NCBI GenBank assembly: GCA_037200965.1
Contig: JBBCGK010000001.1
Coordinates: forward strand, 736,001-800,000
Direction of reading: 5' to 3'
From: a bacterium
GTDB lineage: Bacteria; Patescibacteriota; Minisyncoccia; Phycocordibacterales; Phycocordibacteraceae
DNA length: 64,000 nt
The notes below the pieces were generated by a model. It made no database searches, was not told the DNA's origin, and saw only the letters and a program-made list of their open reading frames with translations. The position numbers were made by a program, and so were the translations under genes. Shown here piece after piece: positions 1 through 35,105 of this stretch; position 1 is the stretch's first letter; every line of letters begins with the position of its first letter.

Positions 1-940
1 GCTCCTGTGCCTCGCGATCTTCTGGCCGTACGCGGGCGTGATCACGGTCTCCGCGGCGCTTGCGGTCGCGCTCTCGCCGGTATTCCGCTGGTTCGACAGG
101 CGCGTGACCCGCGGCATCCGCTGGCTCTCCTCGCTCCTTACCGTCCTCGCGTTTGCCCTGATCCTCGGCGTCCCGCTCGTGTTTCTCGGCACGATGATAT
201 TTGCGCAGGCCGAAGGCCTTTTCACCGCCCTCGTCCACGGCGGTTCCCCGGCCTGGCTCGATTCGCTCATCCCGGCGCTCAAGGGCCTTAACATCGGGGA
301 TTATGTCGGCGAGATCGCGTCATTTCTTCTGGGACACGCGGTGAGCATATCGGCATCGACCCTGGGCCTCCTATTCTCGCTCCTCCTTGCGCTCCTTTCG
401 CTTTTCTTCTTCCTCAAGGACGGCAGGGCCTTTATCGAATATCTCTCCGTGCTCTCCCCGCTTACGGAAGTCCAAAGCCGCAAGATATTCGACCAGCTTG
501 CCGCATCGATCGACGGCGTAATGCGGGGCTATATCATCATCGGCCTCGTGCAGGGAATCCTCGCGGGCGTCGGGCTGTGGCTGTTCGGGGTGCCAAACGC
601 GCTGTTGTGGGGATTCGTGGCGGCCTTCGCTTCGATGATACCGACGATCGGCACGGCGACGATATCCGTACCGGCCATTCTCTATCTCTTCGCGGTGGGG
701 GAGACGGTGTCGGCCATCGGCCTTGCGGCCTGGGCGGTCGTGGTCGTCGGGACGGTGGATAATTTCCTCAATCCCCTCATCGTCGGGAACCGGCTCGCCC
801 TTCCGCCGCTTGCCGTGCTCTTCGCGGTACTTGGCGGCATCGCGCTCCTCGGTCCCGTCGGGATACTCGAGGGGCCGATCGTCGTGAGCCTCCTCCATAC
901 CCTCGTCGTGATTTATAAGGAGGACTTCAAGCCCGCATGA
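1..940 (+). CDS. AI-2E family transporter (PerM/UPF0118-like permease), 5' end truncated by window edge
   Basis: The reading frame is open from nt 2 (LLCLAIFWPYAGVITVSAAL...). It encodes a multi-TM hydrophobic protein with the typical AI-2E family C-terminal half. The stop overlaps the next ORF's start as ATGA. Confidence 0.6.
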   Translation, partial: LLCLAIFWPYAGVITVSAALAVALSPVFRWFDRRVTRGIRWLSSLLTVLAFALILGVPLVFLGTMIFAQAEGLFTALVHGGSPAWLDSLIPALKGLNIGDYVGEIASFLLGHAVSISASTLGLLFSLLLALLSLFFFLKDGRAFIEYLSVLSPLTEVQSRKIFDQLAASIDGVMRGYIIIGLVQGILAGVGLWLFGVPNALLWGFVAAFASMIPTIGTATISVPAILYLFAVGETVSAIGLAAWAVVVVGTVDNFLNPLIVGNRLALPPLAVLFAVLGGIALLGPVGILEGPIVVSLLHTLVVIYKEDFKPA

Positions 941-1455
941 AGAAGATACGCCTCAAGATAGCGTCGCTTGACGCCGTATTCGACCCGCTTGATCCGGAAG
1001 CGATACCGAACCGAAGGCTCTCCGCCGACTGGCTCGAATATGTGTTCGAGATGATGGAAGAGCGCGACCGCGAGTTCGGCGGCCTCTCGCTCGTCATCCC
1101 GCCGGACGTGCTCGGTCCGCGCGCTCCGCAGGAGATCGTCGACGACATGAAGCGCCAGCTCATCGCGCACGACGAGTCGCTCCGGGTGAAGCTCAAGAAG
1201 AATTTCCGCACCGGAAGGGTGACGCTCCTCCTTGCGCTCGTCGTGCTCGCGGTATTCGAAAGCCTCTCGGTCCTTTCGGGCGACTTCAATCTGGGACCGT
1301 TCCAGCAGACCTTCTCCGAAGGGTTTCTCATCATCGGCTGGGTCGCGCTCTGGCGGCCCGTCGAAATACTCCTCTACGATTGGTGGCCGATCGTCGACGA
1401 GCGCCGGAAAGTCCGCAAGCTTCTTAACGGGAAGATCGAGGTCGTAAGCCCGTAG
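937..1455 (+). CDS. hypothetical membrane protein (2 C-terminal TM helices)
   Basis: ATGA overlap with the upstream gene and coding-like composition. No recognisable family. Confidence 0.45.
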   Translation: MKKIRLKIASLDAVFDPLDPEAIPNRRLSADWLEYVFEMMEERDREFGGLSLVIPPDVLGPRAPQEIVDDMKRQLIAHDESLRVKLKKNFRTGRVTLLLALVVLAVFESLSVLSGDFNLGPFQQTFSEGFLIIGWVALWRPVEILLYDWWPIVDERRKVRKLLNGKIEVVSP

Positions 1456-1861
1456 GGTCGCACTTTTCGCACCGGCAGCCGTGCGGCTTGATGTGCTCGT
1501 CCCAGTATTCTTTTCCATAGTCGTACGTGAGTTCCTCGCCTTCGCGTATCGCGCGTATCGATTCGATGAACACATGCCCGCGGACCGTATGCGGCTCGCA
1601 GTTCGGGCGGCAGGAGTGGTTTATGTATCCGGCCGTATTGACGCGCGGCTTTCCGTCTATCGTCTTGCGTTTGTTCACCTCGAAGAGATATTTGCTCCGG
1701 CTCGTATAGGTTTCCGCTTCCGAAAGGGTGCGGCCGACGTATTCGATGATGCGCTCTCCTTTTTTGAACGGGCGAAGGGCGAAGAGCCCGAGGCCCGCGC
1801 TTGAGCGCCGGACTGCGAGACCGTCCGAAGGGTGTTTCTTATCCCGCTTCCTGGATTTCAT
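1424..1861 (-). CDS. SET-domain protein (putative protein-lysine methyltransferase)
   Basis: Motifs GLGLFALRPFKKGERIIEYVG, NHSCRPNCEP and EELTYDYG, followed by a post-SET Cys cluster (CRCEKC). Confidence 0.75.
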   Translation of the reverse strand: MKSRKRDKKHPSDGLAVRRSSAGLGLFALRPFKKGERIIEYVGRTLSEAETYTSRSKYLFEVNKRKTIDGKPRVNTAGYINHSCRPNCEPHTVRGHVFIESIRAIREGEELTYDYGKEYWDEHIKPHGCRCEKCDPTGLRPRSSR

Positions 1862-1885: not shown

Positions 1886-2380
1886 TCAGTTGAGCATCCA
1901 GATCGCGTAGTTGAGGTATGCGGCGAAACTTACCCACAGCACATACGGGAGGAGAAGATACGCGGCACCCTTCGAAACTTTGCAGAACGCGGCGACGGTC
2001 GCGAGGATCGCGAGCCAGAGGAGGACGATCTCGATAAGCGCCCCGGCGGGATTATGGAAGCCGAAGAATATGACGGACCACAGCGTATTGAGGACAAGCT
2101 GGACTGCGAAAATAGAAAGCGTGGTGCGTACGCGTCTTCGGGCGAGCCCTTCGTTCCATATGAGAAACGCGGCGACGCCCATGAGCGCGAACAGGATGGT
2201 CCAGACCGGAGCGAAGATCCAAGAAGGCGGCGCGAACGCGGGCAGGACAAGCGTTGCATACCAGGTCGGGATCGCGGGGATGGTGAACAGGGAACCGATA
2301 ACGCCCGCGAGTTCGGAGACGGCAATTGCGATGACGAGCTTAAGCCAAGATGAGATGTTCATGCGGATAGTGTAGCGCAT
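1886..2380 (-). CDS. tspO: TspO/MBR family tryptophan-rich sensory protein
   Basis: Five-TM, Trp-rich protein of 164 aa with the TspO signature (…WYATL…PSWIFAPVWTILFALMGVAAFLIW…). Confidence 0.8.
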   Translation of the reverse strand: MRYTIRMNISSWLKLVIAIAVSELAGVIGSLFTIPAIPTWYATLVLPAFAPPSWIFAPVWTILFALMGVAAFLIWNEGLARRRVRTTLSIFAVQLVLNTLWSVIFFGFHNPAGALIEIVLLWLAILATVAAFCKVSKGAAYLLLPYVLWVSFAAYLNYAIWMLN

Positions 2381-2460: not shown

Positions 2461-2549
2461 GTGCCTGTGGGCGCAAGCCCCGTTCGGCGATGGTACACCC
2501 AAGCTGAAGAGCAGGCACAACAAAGGAGCCGCCTCGCGCGGCTTTTTTG
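2461..2549 (+). ncRNA. candidate small structured RNA (unknown family) ending in an intrinsic terminator
   Basis: GUGCCUG…CAGGCAC closing helix with an internal GGGC-GCAA-GCCC tetraloop hairpin. It is followed by a GC stem (AGCCGC/GCGGCU) plus a U6 tract at 2527-2549. No + strand ORF precedes the terminator. Confidence 0.35.
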
Positions 2550-2555
2550 TTGTGC

Positions 2556-3017
2556 CTATTCGGGATCGGCTTTTGCCAAATAGTCCGGGGCCCTGAACGG
2601 CATCACGCTGTAGAAATTAAGGGCGCCGTTTCCGATTTTCCGTACGACGACTTTAAGCTCGATGTTGACTCCCGGACGAGAAGCAATGAGTGCGACGAAA
2701 CACCAGTCCTCGATTACCTTGGCTATCCTGAAGCCGTCACCTTTGGGTCTTCCGATCGGCCCAAAATATCTCCGATGCTGTTGTACGGTTCCGGCTTTCT
2801 TGAGCACGTACGGAGCAAGCGGAAATGTCCTGTATCTTCTGATCTGGGCTTTTTTCGAACGTTCCGAACCCGCGGTGTTGTATTGGAAGTGATGGAAACC
2901 GTCCGAATTGAAACCGACATCCTGGTTAAAGTACGGACAAAATACTTTCTTGGTGCTTTCATACAGGGCCCTGGTCTGCGCTTTAAGCTGAGCACAGCAT
3001 TCGTTTTCCGTAGCCAT
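2556..3017 (-). CDS. hypothetical protein (lower-GC segment)
   Basis: Its composition is more protein-like than the overlapping + strand ORF. No family recognised. Confidence 0.3.
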   Translation of the reverse strand: MATENECCAQLKAQTRALYESTKKVFCPYFNQDVGFNSDGFHHFQYNTAGSERSKKAQIRRYRTFPLAPYVLKKAGTVQQHRRYFGPIGRPKGDGFRIAKVIEDWCFVALIASRPGVNIELKVVVRKIGNGALNFYSVMPFRAPDYLAKADPE

Positions 3018-3077: not shown

Positions 3078-3701
3078 TCAATGCGCGAGCGCGACGGGAA
3101 GAACGCGCTTCGCGCCCGCATCAAGAAGTGCGTCCGCGGCGGAGCCAAGCGTTGCTCCCGTCGTCACGACATCGTCAAGGAGGATATAGGTATAGGAAGG
3201 ATCGATAGGATTTGTTGCCGCGAAAGCCCCGCGAAGATTCTCCCTGCGTCCGGCTCCCGTAAGGGTGGTCTGCGGCGCAGTATCGCGGGTACGCGCGAGG
3301 ATATCGGCGCGAACCTCAATTCCGGCATGTTTCGCGGCCCGAAGCGCGATTGCTTCGGCCTGATTGTAGCCGCGGGAGCGAAGGCGCTCGCGCGAAAGGG
3401 GGATAGGAACGAGAACGGCCTTGCCAAAGCTCTCCTCGCTTCCCAGGTCAAGAAGATACTCGCCAAGCACTTCGCCAAGAAGCCCGAAGGCCCTCCGTCT
3501 CCCGTGATATTTCGCTTCGTGCACGAGTGCCCGGACGCGCTCGTTACCAAACGGAAGGAGTCCCGTCACAACGGGCTTGGTGCCGGGAACAAGCACTGGC
3601 TTTACAAGCCCTGCCAACAGCTCCTCGGAAACCCCGCGCACCACCCGTTCGTCGACGCGGGGAGGGAAAAGAAGATCAAGGAGCGAAGCGAACACCGGCA
3701 T
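3078..3701 (-). CDS. comFC: ComF family phosphoribosyltransferase-domain competence protein (ComFC-like)
   Basis: C-terminal PRTase motif ILLDDVVTTGATL plus a RGYNQAE motif. The rest of the 588-aa ORF is an R-rich antisense artefact of pilM. Confidence 0.6.
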   Translation of the reverse strand: MPVFASLLDLLFPPRVDERVVRGVSEELLAGLVKPVLVPGTKPVVTGLLPFGNERVRALVHEAKYHGRRRAFGLLGEVLGEYLLDLGSEESFGKAVLVPIPLSRERLRSRGYNQAEAIALRAAKHAGIEVRADILARTRDTAPQTTLTGAGRRENLRGAFAATNPIDPSYTYILLDDVVTTGATLGSAADALLDAGAKRVLPVALAH

Positions 3702-3734
3702 GTTCCACAGGATAGCGCATGCTAAAATGAGCCC

Positions 3735-19580: not shown

Positions 19581-19872
19581 TCAAAAAGACAGCGGGGTAG
19601 AGGAGTGGTACCTCGGGAGGCTTGAATTATTCGGGCGTGCGCGCGAGCAATTGCGCGTAAGATCATCTGCCAAATTCGGTGAAACCCTCCTGCGCGAAAG
19701 CACAGACGGCAACGCCGAGCCAAGCCCTAAGAGCAATCGAAGGGAAGGTGTAGAGACTAGACGGTAGACATCCCGCAGGGGATGAAGGCATAGTCCAGAC
19801 CACAAATCATTCGTGCGAGAGCGGCGAAAGCCGTAGTGGTAGGCATAACCTCCAGACTCGGGTTCGAATCCC
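19581..19872 (+). tRNA. split tRNA(CAU) (Met or Ile2) gene. Exon 1 is 19581-19612, exon 2 is 19834-19872. The CCA end is not encoded
   Basis: Exon 1 supplies the acceptor strand AGCGGGG, U8, D-arm GAGG/AGUGGUA/CCUC, anticodon-stem strand GGAGG and loop CU. Exon 2 supplies CAUAA, anticodon-stem strand CCUCC, T-arm UCGGG-UUCGAAU-CCCGA and acceptor strand CCCCGCA + A73. Joining the exons gives a canonical cloverleaf with anticodon loop CU-CAU-AA. Confidence 0.75.
19613..19833 (+). ncRNA. group I self-splicing intron (IC3-like, Azoarcus tRNA-Ile intron-like) in the anticodon loop
   Basis: The intron follows a U and ends with G. It contains CAAAUUCGGUGAAACC, GGCAACGCCGAGCCAAGC and AAGGUGUAGAGACUAGACGG, recalled from memory as near-identical to the Azoarcus group I ribozyme. 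A P2-like hairpin GCGCGAGCAAUUGCGCG is present. Confidence 0.7.
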
Positions 19873-19946
19873 GACCCCGCAACAAGCTTGTGATAGTGGA
19901 ACCCAGACCGGTGCGCCTGCAAAAGCAGTTCAGTATCGGTCCGGAT

Positions 19947-20640: not shown

Positions 20641-21482
20641 GGCATTCAGACTCAGTTGGCACAGCTCCCATACCATGGAAGCTATGTACACTCTCAAACA
20701 GATACCGAGCGAAGCGCAGATTCGGAAGTTCTTGCGCCGTACGCTCTTCGGCAAGAACGTGTTCTGTCCTTCGTGCCGGTCACGAAGGATCGAAAAGCAA
20801 CAGGAGCGGTATCGGTGCCGCACGTGCCGCATCCGCTTCTCCCTCACCTCGCACACCTGGCTCTCGAATCTGAAGCTCCCCCTCGAGCAGTGGTGGGTGC
20901 TGCTCTGGTGCTGGACCATACAAGAGCCGGTACGCCAAGCCGTCACGCTCTCTGGCCTTCCGGAACGCACGGTCAGGCGTTGGTATGCCACCTTCAGGCT
21001 CCATTTGCCCCAGGAAACCCATGTGCTCGAACGTATCGTCCAAATGGACGAAGCGTACTTCAAAAACGCCGCGCTCGTCATGGCCAAGCAGAAAGGTACG
21101 AGAAAGCTCGCCTTCGAGGTATTCCACGGCAGGTACCCAACCAAGACTGATGCCGTCTCATTCCTGTTCGAGCATGTGGCGCCGGGAAGCGAGCTCTGGA
21201 CCGATGGCGGGTCGATATACAAGAACATCAGCCAACGCTGGCCGGTGTCGCACCAGCGAGATATTCACTCCAAATTCGAGTTCGAGCACACCTCTGAGAT
21301 CGAGGGAATGTTCGGGGTATACCGCACCTTCGTGCGCAGGATGTATCATCATCACTGGAGCGAGAACTTGGAGGAATACGTGAGGGAATTCTGCTTCAGA
21401 TTTTCCTCGCCGGAAATCTTCAATTCGCCCCGTATTTACTTAACGAAATCACTCACGCTTGTGCCAACTTGTTCTTAATACC
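20641..21482 (+). mobile_element. IS1595-family insertion sequence (~842 bp) with ~25-bp imperfect terminal inverted repeats and 10-bp flanking direct repeat CCGATGGTGG
   Basis: The left end GGCATTCAGACTCAGTTGGCACAG matches the reverse complement of the right end (GGTATTAAGAACAAGTTGGCACAAG). Direct repeats lie at 20631-20640 and 21483-21492. Confidence 0.7.
20675..21478 (+). CDS. IS1595 family transposase (ISXO2-like DDE, N-terminal zinc ribbon)
   Basis: N-terminal CPSC…CRTC zinc ribbon. Length and layout match the ISXO2-like transposase domain. Confidence 0.75.
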   Translation: MEAMYTLKQIPSEAQIRKFLRRTLFGKNVFCPSCRSRRIEKQQERYRCRTCRIRFSLTSHTWLSNLKLPLEQWWVLLWCWTIQEPVRQAVTLSGLPERTVRRWYATFRLHLPQETHVLERIVQMDEAYFKNAALVMAKQKGTRKLAFEVFHGRYPTKTDAVSFLFEHVAPGSELWTDGGSIYKNISQRWPVSHQRDIHSKFEFEHTSEIEGMFGVYRTFVRRMYHHHWSENLEEYVREFCFRFSSPEIFNSPRIYLTKSLTLVPTCS

Positions 21483-28025: not shown

Positions 28026-31000
28026 ATGCTCTTCCTCCTTGTACGCACACTCATAAGACCGCATACGTCCCTTCGCGCCTTTCCTTCCTTGGCAGGGAAG
28101 GGCTTCCTGTTCTTGTTCGTGCTTTGGTCCTGTTCGATAAGCGCGCTGCCTGCATACGCGGCATGGGACGGACAGCCCTATGCGCCGGGCGCAACGCTTG
28201 ACCCGGAGTGCGGGCCGAGCGACTCTAATTGCAAGACGCTTGCGAGCGCGGACGCGACGACGCTTGAAGGCAGGTCCGGAAGCTATTACCTTGCCAACTC
28301 CTTCTCGACGACCTCGGCCGCGTATTTCCTTTCTGACAATCCGGGGCTCTCGTTCGCGACCACCAGTTCTGACTATTGGCTCGCGCATCGGTCCACGTCC
28401 GACCTTCCGGAAGGCTCGCGCCTCTACTACACCGATGCCCGCGCGGACGCGCGCATTCTTGCGACAACTACTCTTGCGAATATCATCTCGCTTCCGGGCT
28501 TGTCTTTGTCCGCGTCGCAGCTTACTGGCTTCGGTATTCCTTTCTACAATTTCTTTCACGCGACGACGACCGATGCGCTCGCGGAAGGTTCCCTGCATCG
28601 CTACTACAGCGACGTGCTCGCCCGCGGAGCGCTTGGCGTATCTGCCGGGGCTCTCGCGTATGACAGCGGCACGGGAATCCTTTCGGTTGCGGGCGGATAT
28701 ACGATTCCTTTATCAGCGTCCACGACGGAGTGGGGCGAGGCATATGACAACCGCATCACGTCGGCCTCGGCGCCTCTCACGATCGCGAACCGCGAGATAA
28801 GCCTCGGCATTGTTGATGCGGGGCACGGCGGCACCGGCCTCGCCTCGTACAATCCGGGCGCACTTCTGTATGCCGATGCCGACGGAAACCTCACGACGCT
28901 TTCGCCCGGTTCTTCCGGTACCGTGCTTAAGATCGCGGGCGGCGTCCCGACCTGGGGCACGGATCTTTCAAGCGGCGGCGGGGGAGGAGCCGTAGCCTGG
29001 GCGACGACATCCGACAGCCTCGCGATCTATCCGATGGACAGCACGAACGTCGTCATCGTGGGCGCAAGCGCGACATCGTCGGCGACGAGCGTCTTTGAAG
29101 TGCACGGGAGGTCGTATTTCACGACCAATGTCGGCATCGGCACGACTTCTCCGCTCTCGGCGCTTTCCGTCGCGGGGAGCGGCTTCTTCACCGGCAACCT
29201 GACTTCGGCCAATATCACCGCCACCGGAACGCTTTCAGTCTCGGGTGCTGGCACGTCGACGTTTGCCGGGCCGTTCTTAGCAGGGAATCTTGCGGTCGCC
29301 GGACTTCCCGCGGGCCTTATAAAGGCCGGGGCGGGCGGGTATCTCCGGGGCGCCGTCGCGGGAACGGATTATTTCGATCCTGCCGCGTTCGGTTCAACTT
29401 TCTATTCTTTTTTTCACGCGACGACGACCGATGCGCTTGCCGAAGGTTCGGTGCATAAGTATTGGAGCGATACGCTCTTCGACAACCGCCTCTCCGCGAC
29501 CACGTCGCTTCCGGGCCTCTCTTCCATCGGTTCGTATACCGGGCTCATCGGCGCGAACAACGGTTCCATGTACCAAATCGCCACTTCGACCAACTTCGTG
29601 ACATCGATCGCGGCCGCATACCCGCTCTCCGTTTCCGGACCAGCCGGGGCGGTGACAATCTCGACCGCGCTCGCTACCACCACATTCCAGCACTCATACG
29701 GTTCCGCGCAGATCGGACAAATCATCCTTGCCACTTCAAGCGCGGCAACGAGTAACGGCATCACGGTGGGGCAGACCATCACGAACTCCGGCGGCGTCTT
29801 CACGTTCGCTCCGGCGGTATCCGTATCGAACATCCCCAATGCCGCCCTGCAGAATTCCGCCGTCACCGTCAACGGCACCCTGATCCCGCTTGGCGGCTCG
29901 GGTACTGTCGCCGCCGCTTCTTCCACGCTCCTTGGAGATAACAATACTTTCTCGGGCGGCAATACGTTTTTGAGCACCATCACCGGCTCCGTTTCTGGCA
30001 ATGCCGGCACCGTTACGAACGGCGTATACACGACTACTTTCGGCGGCCTTTTCGACAACCGCCTCTCCGCGACCACGTCGCTTCCGGGCCTTACGGCGGT
30101 TTCGTCCGGCCTCACGGGCGTCCTTAAGGCGGCGGCGGGCTCTCTCTCGGCGGCGGCACCGGGGATCGATTTCGAAAATCCGCTTTCGTTCCTCTATCCG
30201 CTCGCGCGCACCGCAAACAGCGTAAGCCTTGCCTTCGGGACGACAACTTCAAACACTTGGGGAGGAACCCAGACTTTCACCAACAACCCGATACTCGGCA
30301 CTCTCACCGGTCTCTTCTACGGAAACAACGGATCGCTTGCGGCGACGGCGACATCCTCCGTCACCAGCGGCACCGGCATCGGCTTTTCAGGCACGCCGGG
30401 AGCGCTTGTCGGCGGTACTCCGCTTACGATTACGAATACCGGCGTGACGTCGAATATTGCCGGGACCGGCATCAGCGTCTCGGGCGCGACCGGCGCCGTT
30501 ACGATAAGCGCGGCGAACGTGCCGAACAGCGCGCTTGAGAACTCGACGATCGGGCTTGCTTCGGGCGACTCCTCCCTTACGGTTTCCGGCTCGCCCGCCT
30601 CTCTTGGAGGCTCGCTTTCCGCCTCCCTTAACACCGCGCATCCGAATACGTTCACCGCGCTTCAGCAATTCAGCGCAAATGCGTCGACGACGGGAATCTC
30701 TTCTTCGTATGCGTCCTCGACCAAAGCCTTCCTTGGAAGCCTGTCGATAGGGAATCTGACCGGCATCCTGCGCGCGGCCGGGGGTGCCGTATCGGCCTCG
30801 CTCGTGTCCCTCGCTTCCGACGTGACCGGAGTGCTCGGCGTTATAAACGGCGGGACGGGATGGGATTCGATACAGTCCGGCAGCATCCCGTACGGAAACG
30901 GCGCCGGGGCGCTCGCCACCACGAGCCCGGGAACCAACGGGCAGACGCTCGCGCTTGTCGCCGGAGTTCCGGCCTGGATCGCGACGACAACCGCGGGCAC

Positions 31001-34000
31001 CGGCCTTACGTATTCCGGCGGCAGCTTCAATGTGAATACGGCGCAGAATGTCGCGAAGCTTTCGAACCTCACGGGGAACGGATTCGTCAAAACTATAAAC
31101 GGCGACGGCACGCTTTCGGTCGATACCAATACCTACCTCGCCTCCATTGGTCCCGCAGGACAAAGCCAGAGCGGTCCTGCGGTCGCCATTGCCTCCTCGA
31201 CCGATTCTGCGACCGGCCTTATCTCGGGCGTCGTGATAACCGGAAGCGCGAATACGCTTACCTGGAAGGCCGTGCTCTCCGGCGTCTTGAGTGCCGCAAA
31301 CGGCGGCACCGGATCGACGACGCTTTCGGGAATCCTCAAAGGAAACGGCACGGGAGTGCTTATGACCGCGGTTCCGGGAACCGACTATCAGGCGGCGGGG
31401 AACTATCTCACCGCGCTTACCGGTGACATCTCCGCGTCGGGTCCGGGTTCCGCCGCCGCGACGCTCGCGACCGTGAACGCGGATACGGGGTCGTTCGGGG
31501 GTTCGACCGCCATCCCGACTTTTGTCGTAAACGGGAAAGGGCTCGTCACATCCGCGGGCACCGCGGCGGTTATCGCGCCCGCGGGAACGCTCACCGGAAC
31601 CGTACTTGCTTCGAACATCCTCGCTTCTTCGCTTACATCCGTCGGAACGCTCGGCACGCTCTCCGTTTCCGGCCAGGCTTCGCTTGCGGGCGCGAGCTCG
31701 ACCGCCTTTTCCTCGTCCTATGCGTCTTCGACCAGTGCGTTCTTCGGAAACCTGTCCGTCGGAAGTCTTTCGGGAATACTGCGCGCGACCGCCGGAGCGG
31801 TCTCCGCGGGCGCGGTGAATCTTGCCTCGGAAATATCCGGGATGCTCGGCGTCGCAAACGGCGGCACGGGCGCGGGCTCGTTTGCGGCAGGCTCCCTCAT
31901 CTACGGAAACGGTACGGGCCCGCTTCAGAGCGCCGCGACCTCGTCCGTTTCAAACGGCGCTGGCATCTCGGTCTCGGGCGCCGCCGCCGTGGTCGGGAGC
32001 GGGGGACTCACCATCACCAACACGGGCATCACGTCCGTCACGCCGCAATTCGGTGCGGCCATCAGTAACGGCGGGCTAACCGTCGCGTCCTCGACGGCGG
32101 GCACCGACTTTTCGATAACCGGATCGGGAAGCACGATCACGTTCAATCTTCCGACCGCGTCTGCCGCAAACCGCGGCTTGCTTTCCTCCGCCGACTGGAG
32201 CGCCTTCAGCGCCAAGCAGGGCGCGCTTACGTTCGCGTATCCGCTCCAGAATAGCGCGAATACCGTATCGCTCGCCTTCGGGACGACGACCGCGAATACC
32301 TGGGGACCGGTGCAAACTTTCACGAACGTTCCCGTGCTCGGCACTCTTTCGGGAATCATTTATGGGAATAACGGATCGCTTGCCGCGACCGCCACTTCGA
32401 CGCTTGGCGTCGCGCTTGCGGACACTACGGGCTCGCTCCCGGTCGACCGGGGAGGCACCGGATCGACGACGCTCGGCGGCATTTTGAAGGGAAACGGAAC
32501 TTCCGGCATCGCGACCGCCGTCCCCGGCATCGATTATCAGCCCGCCGGGAGCTATCTCACCGGCAACCAGACGGTTACGCTTTCGGGCGACGTCTCGGGA
32601 AGCGGCGCCACTTCGATCACGACCGCGATCGGGGCGGGGAAGGTGACGAATGCGATGCTCCTGGGCGCTATTGCCGCCGCGAAGCTCATCGGAACCGATA
32701 TCACGACCGTCGGGACGATCGTAAGCGGCGTGTGGCAGGGCTCCGTGATCGGATCAGCCTACGGCGGGGCGGGAGCCGTAAGCGGAATACTCAAAGCGAA
32801 CGGTTCCGGCAACGTCTCCGCCGCCTCCGCCGGAACCGACTACGTCGCTCCGAACTCCTCGCCCACATTTGCGGGCCTCACGCTCCTAAGCGCGCTTCCC
32901 GTCGCAAGCGGCGGGACGGGCTGGAGCGCGATACAGTCCGGCAGCATCCCGTACGGAAACGGTTCCGGTGCCCTCGCGACTACCTCGAGCGGGGCGGCGG
33001 GGAGCGTGCTCGCGCTTGTCGCCGGAGTTCCGGCCTGGGTCGCGACGACCACGTTCTCCACGGGCCTTACGTATACGGCCGGAAGCGTGACCGTGAACAC
33101 CGCACAGAGCATCGCGAAGCTTTCGAACCTGACAAGCAATGGATTCGTCAAAACTATAAACGGCGACGGCACGCTCTCGGTCGATACGAACACCTACCTC
33201 GCCTCCATTGGTCCCGCAGGACAAAGCCAGAGCGGCCCCGCAATTACGATCGCAACTTCGACCGCGGGAACCGACATATCGGTGACGGCTTCCGGCAATA
33301 CGATCACGTTCAACCTCCCGACCGCATCTGCCGCAAACCGCGGCTTGCTTTCCTCGTCCGATTGGACGACATTCAACGGCAAAGTGTCGACCGGCGCGTT
33401 CACATCCTCCGGCCTCACCCTTTCGACCGGTAAGCTTCTCGGAAGAAGTTTGGACGGTACGGGAGCGGCCGAAGAGATAACGGTCGGGAGCGGCCTCTCT
33501 CTTTCTGGCGGGACTCTCTCCGCGTCTGGGAGCGGCATCAGCGCACTTGGTCCTTCGGGACAAACCCAAAGCGGTGCGACGGTCACCATTGCCACCTCGA
33601 CAAGCCTTGCAAACGGCGTCACGTCCGCGCTTGTGGTCGTGGGTTCTTCGAACACGCTTATGTTCACTCCTTCCGTTTCCGGCGTGCTCACGGTTCCTGG
33701 GGGAGGCACCGGTGCCGGTACGCTCACGGGACTCGTTTCGGGAAACGGCACGAACGCTTTCACCGCGACCGCGAACGGCGCAAACGGCCAGGTGCTTGCT
33801 ATGTCCGCCGGAGCGCCGACCTGGGTCGCAACGACCACGTTCTCGACCGGACTTACGTACACGGCGGGCACGGTGACGGTCAACACGGTGCAAAGCGTCA
33901 CGAAGCTTTCGAATCTCGCCACGAACGGATTCGTGAAAACGATCAACGCCGACGGCACGCTCTCGATCGACACCAACACCTATCTCACCTCTGCCCTCAC

Positions 34001-35105
34001 CTCAATAGGTCCCGCCGGTCAGGTACAGAACGGCCCGGCTATCGTTATCGCCACCTCGACGACCGCATTTAACGGCATTACGGTGGGCGACACGATAACC
34101 GGTTCGGGGAACACGCTTACGTGGAAGCCCAGCTGGAGCGGTTCGCTCAGCGTCCCTGGCGGCGGCACGGGGGCGACTTCGTTCGGGCAGGGCTGGATAT
34201 TCTCAAGCGGCGGCACGGGTGCCCTTGCTGCCTCGACAAGCCCGACCGTGAACTATCTTATCGCCACCTCGACGACCGCCGCTTCGATCTTCAATTACCG
34301 CGTCGGCATCGGTACGAACGCCCCCGCAACCGCGCTTGACGTGAACGGCGATATCACGATCGAGACCTTGACCTGCAACACATCGCTCGTCGGACTGGGC
34401 ACCGACGCGAACGGCAAGATCTATTGCAAGAGCGTCGTAGGTTCCGATGAGCGGCTTAAGTCGAATATCGAAAGTCTCGGCGACGAAAATGGCCTTGCTC
34501 TCATAGACTCGCTGCGCCCTGTCTCCTATGACTGGAAGGACCCGAACGTGTATGGCGGCATGTCCGGCCTCCAGTACGGGTTCATCGCGCAGCAGGCGCT
34601 TTCTGCCGCGCCGACTCTCGTCGGCACGACGTCGCCGACAGAACTGACGCCCGACGTCACGTACACGTTCAACTATTTCGGCCTCATCGCGCCCCTCGTG
34701 AAAGCGACACAGCAGCTTGACGCGCGGTTCGGCGCGATTGCTTCAACGAGCGCGGATGCGTCTCCGACGTCTTTTGCTCAGGCATTCTTTGGCCGTCTTC
34801 GGGAATGGTTCGCCGACGCGGCAAACGGAATCGAGGACTTCTATGCGAATCGTGTCCATACTTCGCAACTATGCTTAGCAGTCTCCGGCGGGGAAGAGGA
34901 ATGCTTTACGGGCGACGAGCTGAAAGCCCTTAAGGAGAAAGCCGGACAGCATGACAAGGTTCCGCCGCCCGGCATCGGGCCTGTCATCATCGAGGATGTT
35001 CCGCCGCCGGACACCACTGCCTCATCGTCCGAGCCGGAATCAGAAGCCGCTGCGGCTATGCCAGTGCCTCCCGATCCCGCTACTGACTTACCCGCGCCCG
35101 AGTAA
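28026..35105 (+). CDS. giant (2359 aa) secreted surface protein, Gly/Thr/Ser-rich repeat region, C-terminal intramolecular-chaperone (peptidase S74-like) domain and Pro-rich tail
   Basis: Signal-peptide-like N-terminus, then an AAWDGQPYAPGATLDPECGPSDSNCK module. Long near-identical internal repeats. C-terminal VVGSDERLKSNIESL…LRPVSYDWK…GFIAQQ resembles the autoproteolytic tail-fibre chaperone domain, followed by a PPPG/PPPD tail. Confidence 0.8.
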   Translation: MLFLLVRTLIRPHTSLRAFPSLAGKGFLFLFVLWSCSISALPAYAAWDGQPYAPGATLDPECGPSDSNCKTLASADATTLEGRSGSYYLANSFSTTSAAYFLSDNPGLSFATTSSDYWLAHRSTSDLPEGSRLYYTDARADARILATTTLANIISLPGLSLSASQLTGFGIPFYNFFHATTTDALAEGSLHRYYSDVLARGALGVSAGALAYDSGTGILSVAGGYTIPLSASTTEWGEAYDNRITSASAPLTIANREISLGIVDAGHGGTGLASYNPGALLYADADGNLTTLSPGSSGTVLKIAGGVPTWGTDLSSGGGGGAVAWATTSDSLAIYPMDSTNVVIVGASATSSATSVFEVHGRSYFTTNVGIGTTSPLSALSVAGSGFFTGNLTSANITATGTLSVSGAGTSTFAGPFLAGNLAVAGLPAGLIKAGAGGYLRGAVAGTDYFDPAAFGSTFYSFFHATTTDALAEGSVHKYWSDTLFDNRLSATTSLPGLSSIGSYTGLIGANNGSMYQIATSTNFVTSIAAAYPLSVSGPAGAVTISTALATTTFQHSYGSAQIGQIILATSSAATSNGITVGQTITNSGGVFTFAPAVSVSNIPNAALQNSAVTVNGTLIPLGGSGTVAAASSTLLGDNNTFSGGNTFLSTITGSVSGNAGTVTNGVYTTTFGGLFDNRLSATTSLPGLTAVSSGLTGVLKAAAGSLSAAAPGIDFENPLSFLYPLARTANSVSLAFGTTTSNTWGGTQTFTNNPILGTLTGLFYGNNGSLAATATSSVTSGTGIGFSGTPGALVGGTPLTITNTGVTSNIAGTGISVSGATGAVTISAANVPNSALENSTIGLASGDSSLTVSGSPASLGGSLSASLNTAHPNTFTALQQFSANASTTGISSSYASSTKAFLGSLSIGNLTGILRAAGGAVSASLVSLASDVTGVLGVINGGTGWDSIQSGSIPYGNGAGALATTSPGTNGQTLALVAGVPAWIATTTAGTGLTYSGGSFNVNTAQNVAKLSNLTGNGFVKTINGDGTLSVDTNTYLASIGPAGQSQSGPAVAIASSTDSATGLISGVVITGSANTLTWKAVLSGVLSAANGGTGSTTLSGILKGNGTGVLMTAVPGTDYQAAGNYLTALTGDISASGPGSAAATLATVNADTGSFGGSTAIPTFVVNGKGLVTSAGTAAVIAPAGTLTGTVLASNILASSLTSVGTLGTLSVSGQASLAGASSTAFSSSYASSTSAFFGNLSVGSLSGILRATAGAVSAGAVNLASEISGMLGVANGGTGAGSFAAGSLIYGNGTGPLQSAATSSVSNGAGISVSGAAAVVGSGGLTITNTGITSVTPQFGAAISNGGLTVASSTAGTDFSITGSGSTITFNLPTASAANRGLLSSADWSAFSAKQGALTFAYPLQNSANTVSLAFGTTTANTWGPVQTFTNVPVLGTLSGIIYGNNGSLAATATSTLGVALADTTGSLPVDRGGTGSTTLGGILKGNGTSGIATAVPGIDYQPAGSYLTGNQTVTLSGDVSGSGATSITTAIGAGKVTNAMLLGAIAAAKLIGTDITTVGTIVSGVWQGSVIGSAYGGAGAVSGILKANGSGNVSAASAGTDYVAPNSSPTFAGLTLLSALPVASGGTGWSAIQSGSIPYGNGSGALATTSSGAAGSVLALVAGVPAWVATTTFSTGLTYTAGSVTVNTAQSIAKLSNLTSNGFVKTINGDGTLSVDTNTYLASIGPAGQSQSGPAITIATSTAGTDISVTASGNTITFNLPTASAANRGLLSSSDWTTFNGKVSTGAFTSSGLTLSTGKLLGRSLDGTGAAEEITVGSGLSLSGGTLSASGSGISALGPSGQTQSGATVTIATSTSLANGVTSALVVVGSSNTLMFTPSVSGVLTVPGGGTGAGTLTGLVSGNGTNAFTATANGANGQVLAMSAGAPTWVATTTFSTGLTYTAGTVTVNTVQSVTKLSNLATNGFVKTINADGTLSIDTNTYLTSALTSIGPAGQVQNGPAIVIATSTTAFNGITVGDTITGSGNTLTWKPSWSGSLSVPGGGTGATSFGQGWIFSSGGTGALAASTSPTVNYLIATSTTAASIFNYRVGIGTNAPATALDVNGDITIETLTCNTSLVGLGTDANGKIYCKSVVGSDERLKSNIESLGDENGLALIDSLRPVSYDWKDPNVYGGMSGLQYGFIAQQALSAAPTLVGTTSPTELTPDVTYTFNYFGLIAPLVKATQQLDARFGAIASTSADASPTSFAQAFFGRLREWFADAANGIEDFYANRVHTSQLCLAVSGGEEECFTGDELKALKEKAGQHDKVPPPGIGPVIIEDVPPPDTTASSSEPESEAAAAMPVPPDPATDLPAPE

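Follow-up and report, generated by a model that had tools for sequence, protein, structure and literature searches.

A compact SET-domain protein of 145 amino acids (aa), encoded in a 64,000-nucleotide stretch of the Patescibacteriota assembly GCA_037200965.1 (contig JBBCGK010000001.1, positions 736,001 to 800,000; the whole 64-kb stretch of the genome is called the window below), is, with a probability of roughly 60%, a cytoplasmic SET lysine methyltransferase that depends on S-adenosylmethionine (SAM) and acts on a conserved substrate of the cell's own, which may be linked to nucleic acids. This reading builds on the domain, its motifs, its predicted fold, its distribution, the absence of an export signal and the basic charge of the protein. 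The gene falls in a well-known enzyme class, had been annotated as such before, and its anatomy is unsurprising; an identical protein is public as 'SET domain-containing protein' on a 960-kb contig of the NCBI metagenome-assembled genome (MAG) GCA_037975565.1. Nearly all that is known of bacterial SET proteins comes from pathogens that inject these enzymes into eukaryotic cells: reviews describe functional characterization for host-directed bacterial SET effectors only, and they record SET genes in free-living bacteria as well. Our literature searches that paired SET domains with Patescibacteria or with the candidate phyla radiation (CPR) returned nothing relevant. Patescibacteria commonly have a compact SET plus post-SET enzyme, strongly conserved and shared with free-living Alphaproteobacteria, and this suggests that the cells methylate lysines of a target of their own that has yet to be studied. 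The cultured Methyloceanibacter carriers described below make the substrate question approachable without culturing a CPR organism.

The open reading frame (ORF), read from the window DNA, spans exactly 1861 to 1424 on the minus strand, and the methyltransferase gene is real and apparently intact: its frame is backed by more than 2100 homologues, and the overlapping rival ORFs at 913..1575 (-) and 1481..1804 (+) are without support. An earlier note on this DNA, made from the letters alone, had proposed a bacterial SET protein here on the strength of the signatures NHSCRPNC and ELTYDYG and post-SET cysteines, and all three are present when read directly from the DNA of the gene. The Pfam scan it had suggested is likewise significant, with PF00856 scoring 79.7 bits (E 2.5e-22; gathering score 22.4) over its full length (model 1-105 of 105, residues 23-116), which is far above chance. 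Conservation was assessed in two alignments, A1 with 29 CPR members (mean column identity 65%) and A2 with 90 homologues at 33-71% identity. Invariant in A1 are G23, G25, Y41, Y52, N81-H82-S83, N87, E110, Y113, Y115, C129 and C131. The broader A2 leaves N81, N87, Y115 and C129 invariant, with G23, G25, Y41, Y58, Y79, H82, C84, P86, E110, G116 and C131 conserved at 90% or more; the loss of the catalytic Tyr or Asn, which the earlier note had named as a danger to its claim, is thus not seen. The SAM-binding and catalytic motif set (GxG, NHSCxPN, ELxYDY) is present, with residues that are invariant or conserved at 90% or more across the 90 homologues. In characterized SET enzymes such as DIM-5, SET7/9 and MLL1 the conserved positions bind SAM and line the lysine channel, GxG being the SAM-binding loop, and in DIM-5/MLL-type enzymes the Cys of NHSC is the SET-domain ligand of the post-SET zinc.

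Structure prediction with AlphaFold (AF2) on an alignment of 90 diverse sequences gave a confident model, with a predicted local distance difference test (pLDDT) score of 90.5, a predicted template modelling score (pTM) of 0.82 and low confidence in the two tails only; it superseded a poor model (pLDDT 62) built from 29 close homologues. The predicted model matches the SET beta-fold of solved SET structures. Among solved structures, the SET domains of human KMT2C/MLL3 and MLL1 are the best matches by sequence, found at E 1.5e-17 with the single sequence and at E 1e-33 with a family profile. Identity to MLL1 and G9a is 36-37%, as against 25% over 106 aligned residues to BurB of Burkholderia thailandensis and 25% to Legionella RomA/LegAS4, the sole effector compared by sequence. 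In both sequence and fold the protein is nearer to the KMT2 enzymes (37%) than to the sole structurally known bacterial effector (25%). It differs from the KMT2/MLL/SET1 (COMPASS) enzymes in standing alone, without a pre-SET, an N-flanking region or other domains, in 14 gap positions that the alignment with MLL3 places in the query at several points in and around the variable middle region, and in belonging to an organism without nucleosomes. The vSET protein of Paramecium bursaria chlorella virus 1 is also among the nearest known systems.

Read against these templates, the protein is very likely an active methyltransferase. It would act as a stand-alone enzyme made of a SET core and a zinc-binding post-SET segment, resembling the catalytic module of KMT2/MLL, G9a and SET8. 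The G23-x-G25 loop would form the SAM pocket jointly with N81-H82 and the post-SET segment. The target lysine would come in on the opposite side, along a narrow channel whose lining includes the conserved tyrosines Y41, Y79, Y113 and Y115. Y115, at the catalytic Tyr position, would place the epsilon-amine for methyl transfer by bimolecular nucleophilic substitution (SN2), and the channel would be closed by a zinc ion held by C84, C129, C131 and C134. Most A1 members have Cys at position 134; in three, this third Cys is missing and a His lies nearby. At the Phe/Tyr-switch position, which corresponds to Y3942 in MLL1 and F281 in DIM-5, the protein has Y113, and because this is Tyr rather than Phe, mono- or dimethylation is predicted rather than trimethylation. 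A catalytically inactive SET-fold protein, serving as a reader or scaffold as some PR/SET proteins do, would agree with a weak secondary Pfam match to the PRDM2 PR domain (17.3 bits, under the cut-off of 27) and with the atypical post-SET spacing; given the invariant catalytic residues in A2, we regard it as very improbable.

The family proved much more widespread than the earlier note's word 'sporadic' suggested. Among GTDB species representatives (one genome per species) at least 595 relatives were found, the best 80 of them 55-74% identical to the window protein, and a protein collection held more than 2100 clusters at 90% identity. The closest relatives, at 65-78% identity, are named Minisyncoccia, Paceibacterota or Parcubacteria, that is, Patescibacteria/CPR, and the GTDB relatives listed are mostly Paceibacteria-type CPR (Kaiser-, Vogel-, Adler-, Yonath- and Lloydbacteria). 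Others listed include Alphaproteobacteria (Methyloceanibacter, Hyphomonadaceae, Caulobacterales) on contigs of up to 622 kb, one gammaproteobacterial MAG and one Chloracidobacterium MAG. Flanking GC is 0.60-0.71 at the alphaproteobacterial loci versus a CPR median of 0.49, so these loci are not mis-binned CPR DNA. Exact look-ups further returned RefSeq cluster-mates from cultured Methyloceanibacter superfactus and M. marginalis; the M. superfactus protein (WP_069442504.1) aligns with the window protein over 122 residues without a gap, at 65% identity. Across Methyloceanibacter and the Caulobacterales/Hyphomonadaceae MAGs, the orthologues have 61-66% identity with the same architecture and basic tail. 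An exhaustive search of 1.8 billion representatives of 50%-identity clusters found 8572 SET relatives when E values up to 1e-3 were accepted and only 38 with the limit at 1e-30, a distribution that fits a compact orthologous group evolving slowly. One relative of 264 aa (P0121) is apparently a tandem SET-SET fusion, since SET sequence occurs in it twice, each time with about 51% identity to the query.

The blocks of conserved gene order around the SET gene coincide with the clades of a rough neighbour-joining (NJ) tree of the protein, made without support values, so the gene looks stably inherited within lineages. Mobility on phages or plasmids was considered and rejected: a phage search gave no SET-family carrier, and the plasmid matches were only distant (35-44% identity, on Burkholderia-group megaplasmids). 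Since this tightly conserved orthologous family is passed on vertically in many Paceibacteria-type lineages of Patescibacteria and also occurs in free-living Alphaproteobacteria, its most likely substrate is a conserved protein of the cell itself.

The alternative of a secreted effector, raised by the earlier note, holds that the SET enzyme is delivered by a CPR cell into its host and there methylates histones or other chromatin proteins. It has precedents in Chlamydia NUE, Legionella RomA/LegAS4, Burkholderia BtSET and Bacillus BaSET, and the genome, a Patescibacteria-type MAG of about 1 Mb, does belong to a small-genome bacterium as that note had supposed. Nothing positive in favour of an effector role emerged for this protein. 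A signal-peptide-like hydrophobic segment is present in 0 of 86 family members, with no run longer than 5 in the first 35 aa, a check that covers Sec-type N-termini; of this genome itself the analysis covered 64 kb. The Legionella AnkI/LegAS4 equivalog model (NF043024) scores 23.1 bits against a cut-off of 550 and matches the SET part only, and Pfam and NCBIfam searches of the 145-aa protein found neither ankyrin repeats nor other targeting domains. The known hosts of Patescibacteria are mostly bacteria or archaea, in which eukaryotic histones would not be on offer. The orthologues with the same architecture and basic tail in cultured free-living Methyloceanibacter and in the Caulobacterales/Hyphomonadaceae MAGs count against delivery to a host, as does the greater closeness to KMT2 than to the known effector. 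An effector role is therefore unlikely, and the protein is more likely a housekeeping-type modifier than a host-directed enzyme.

As to what a cytoplasmic lysine methyltransferase of this kind might modify, the charge of the family gives a hint. Its members are strongly basic (median isoelectric point 9.5, median net charge +12) and carry Lys/Arg tails; the N-terminal tail has a median of 13 aa with 4 K+R versus 1 D+E and is basic in CPR and proteobacterial copies alike, and in several members the tails are longer and Lys-rich, at times H1-like. An enzyme of so basic a character, with its Lys/Arg tails, perhaps has a DNA- or RNA-bound substrate, for instance a protein of the nucleoid, the ribosome or translation, and a role in modifying the cell's own nucleoid or nucleic-acid-associated proteins is possible and would fit so basic a family. 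Reviews record precedents among prokaryotic SET enzymes: Hc1, a bacterial protein, is a substrate of chlamydial cpnSET, and Go1-SET of the archaeon Methanosarcina mazei is reported to methylate the organism's own DNA-associated protein MC1-alpha. Go1-SET is the closest functional analogy to the proposed mechanism, being likewise a small stand-alone prokaryotic SET enzyme; it is archaeal, as is its substrate MC1, and the likeness drawn here is one of reported function. More speculatively, the family could be a native bacterial 'chromatin-writer', a strongly basic SET enzyme, sometimes with Lys/Ala/Pro tails like those of histone H1, whose target in ultra-small Patescibacteria and free-living Alphaproteobacteria alike is a conserved protein of the nucleoid or of the translation machinery. 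If this tentative idea is true, the unusually high, ungapped 65% conservation across phyla would mean either co-evolution with that universal substrate or a recent transfer between CPR cells and the proteobacteria that are their neighbours or hosts.

Among individual tails, the alphaproteobacterial orthologues L035, L041 and L063 end in Lys/Ala/Pro-rich C-termini (e.g., ...GKPLKRKSLKKKKKA) that resemble the DNA-binding tails of histone H1 or of bacterial H1-like proteins, and the alphaproteobacterial orthologue L039 has a similar 45-aa N-terminus rich in K/T/A/P.

Several observations weigh against a lysine methyltransferase with a conserved endogenous substrate. One bacterial SET enzyme that also stands alone, BurB, is known to act on a small molecule in place of a protein, turning free methionine into S-methylmethionine by S-methylation. 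The post-SET spacing is CxCxxC, compared with the canonical CxCx4C of SUV39/KMT2/SET2-type enzymes, and the zinc site, for which C84 of NHSC would supply the further ligand, is a prediction. The family is patchy and not universal, and the gene is accordingly not an essential housekeeping gene. In the unsupported NJ tree two alphaproteobacterial clades nest among CPR branches; gene transfer between CPR and proteobacteria is thus possible, and it would weaken the argument that the same protein implies the same endogenous substrate. Finally, no family-wide partner gene points to a substrate.

The first of these points raises the possibility of a small-molecule methyltransferase of SET fold, like BurB and not a protein-lysine enzyme. 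Identity to BurB is well below that to MLL1 and G9a, and the full lysine-methyltransferase motif set is present here, with the lysine-channel tyrosines and post-SET cysteines invariant or nearly so. CPR genomes have a minimal metabolism, and a very basic enzyme with disordered Lys/Arg tails suits a macromolecule better than a metabolite. In about 11 of 85 loci, those of the closest relatives, the SET gene is preceded at a distance of about 12 nt by a same-strand gene for a 129-aa cupin, which brought up a sulfonium-metabolism pair like that of BurB with DddK. The Cupin_2 protein is highly conserved, 76-82% identical between genomes (loci L005 4599-4988, L006, L007, L008, L010, L013, L021, L030, L038); its best solved match is the functionally uncharacterized Bacillus halodurans BH2720 (PDB 2oa2, E 1e-31), and it shows no NCBIfam match and no similarity to dimethylsulfoniopropionate (DMSP) lyases. 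The pair was dropped because the cupin is BH2720-like and unlike DMSP lyases. This window has no such cupin gene. Together these points make a BurB-like activity quite unlikely, and we keep to a lysine methyltransferase with an endogenous protein substrate.

Other neighbours were similarly confined to lineages. A convergent cold-shock gene follows the SET gene in about 15 of 85 loci, again among the closest relatives, and both it and the cupin were rejected as clues to function, since neighbours limited to the closest relatives amount to lineage synteny. Unbiased clustering of 538 flanking ORFs gave no universal partner, only clade-specific blocks: these feature a 207-aa protein without a known family, or VanY; in a further clade the SET gene is preceded by a PF10672 methyltransferase and followed by RuvB/RuvC-like genes; and Methyloceanibacter-type loci have a flavin adenine dinucleotide (FAD) amine-oxidase-like gene downstream. 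Defence-system models (PADLOC) gave no match, and a role in a defence system was rejected.

Table 1. Features of the SET gene and its immediate surroundings in the window (A1 and A2 are the two alignments described in the text)
Feature	Position	Strand	Remarks
SET plus post-SET methyltransferase gene, complete	1424..1861	-	145 aa
N-terminal basic tail, residues 1-13, MKSRKRDKKHPSD, predicted disordered	1823..1861	-	pLDDT 58 for residues 1-10
G23-L-G25, GxG motif of SET-N	1787..1795	-	invariant in A1, >=90% in A2; aligns to MLL3 GLG
NHSCRPNC, residues 81-88 (NHSCxPN signature)	1598..1621	-	read from DNA; A2 conservation
ELTYDYG, residues 110-116 (ELxYDY motif)	1514..1534	-	read from DNA; aligns to MLL3 ELCYDY
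Post-SET CRCEKC, residues 129-134 (CxCxxC)	1460..1477	-	read from DNA
C-terminal tail DPTGLRPRSSR plus stop, non-conserved	1424..1459	-	family consensus stops shortly after CxCxxC; pLDDT 63
tspO (TspO/MBR)	1886..2380	-	Pfam PF03073, 163.8 bits
GC-rich long hairpin with A and T runs at its flanks, terminator-like	2513..2557	.	stem seen; minus-strand terminator-like site 2543..2527

At the locus itself (Table 1), the last 32 nt of the SET gene are shared with the 3' end of the gene at 937..1455 (+), which runs towards it and encodes a membrane protein. The minus-strand gene order runs from a ComF-family gene through a low-GC ORF and the terminator-like hairpin to tspO and the SET gene. As the earlier note had observed, tspO lies beside the SET gene; it sits upstream on the same strand across a 24-nt gap, and the two are probably co-transcribed. 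This adjacency occurs only in three loci that carry the same sequence (L001-L003) and in 0 of about 82 others, so that it is private to this genome, and a functional tspO-SET pair was rejected. The SET gene has a GC content of 0.575 and a third-position GC (GC3) of 0.70, slightly lower than its neighbours and near tspO; with GC and GC3 so close to those of tspO, composition is not decisive for a foreign origin, and that idea was not retained.

The hairpin, which is near-perfect, stands between a 153-aa ORF at 2556..3017 (-) and the tspO-SET pair. A small RNA upstream of tspO was considered and rejected, as only the terminator-like hairpin is present and no Rfam family matched. The 153-aa ORF has a GC content of 0.506 versus 0.594 for the window, gave no match in Pfam, NCBIfam or PADLOC, and may be an acquired orphan gene. 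Next to it, at 3078..3725, the public gene call is a 214-aa plus-strand ORF without a family match, and the minus strand encodes a ComF-family phosphoribosyltransferase-like protein (TIGR00201 73 bits, E 2.9e-20; GntX model 76.5 bits). Because the minus strand matches ComF-family models, the deposited annotation is probably on the wrong strand.

Elsewhere in the window, Rfam places a group I intron (RF00028; 58.8 bits, gathering score 50) at 19614..19815. It interrupts a tRNA gene at 19582..19888 (+) that ARAGORN missed, with exons AGCGGGGTAGAGGAGTGGTACCTCGGGAGGCT and CATAACCTCCAGACTCGGGTTCGAATCCCGACCCCGCAA. The spliced product would have the anticodon loop CT-CAT-AA, making it a candidate tRNA(CAU) for Met, fMet or Ile2, and an initiator-like A:A mismatch at position 1:72. 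About 0.8 kb downstream of the tRNA gene is an IS1595-family transposase (DDE_Tnp_IS1595 plus zinc ribbon) at 20675..21478 (+). A 2359-aa ORF at 28026..35105 (+) carries a Peptidase_S74 domain (endosialidase chaperone, an intramolecular chaperone with auto-processing) at residues 2140-2199 and may encode a large surface or fibre-like protein.
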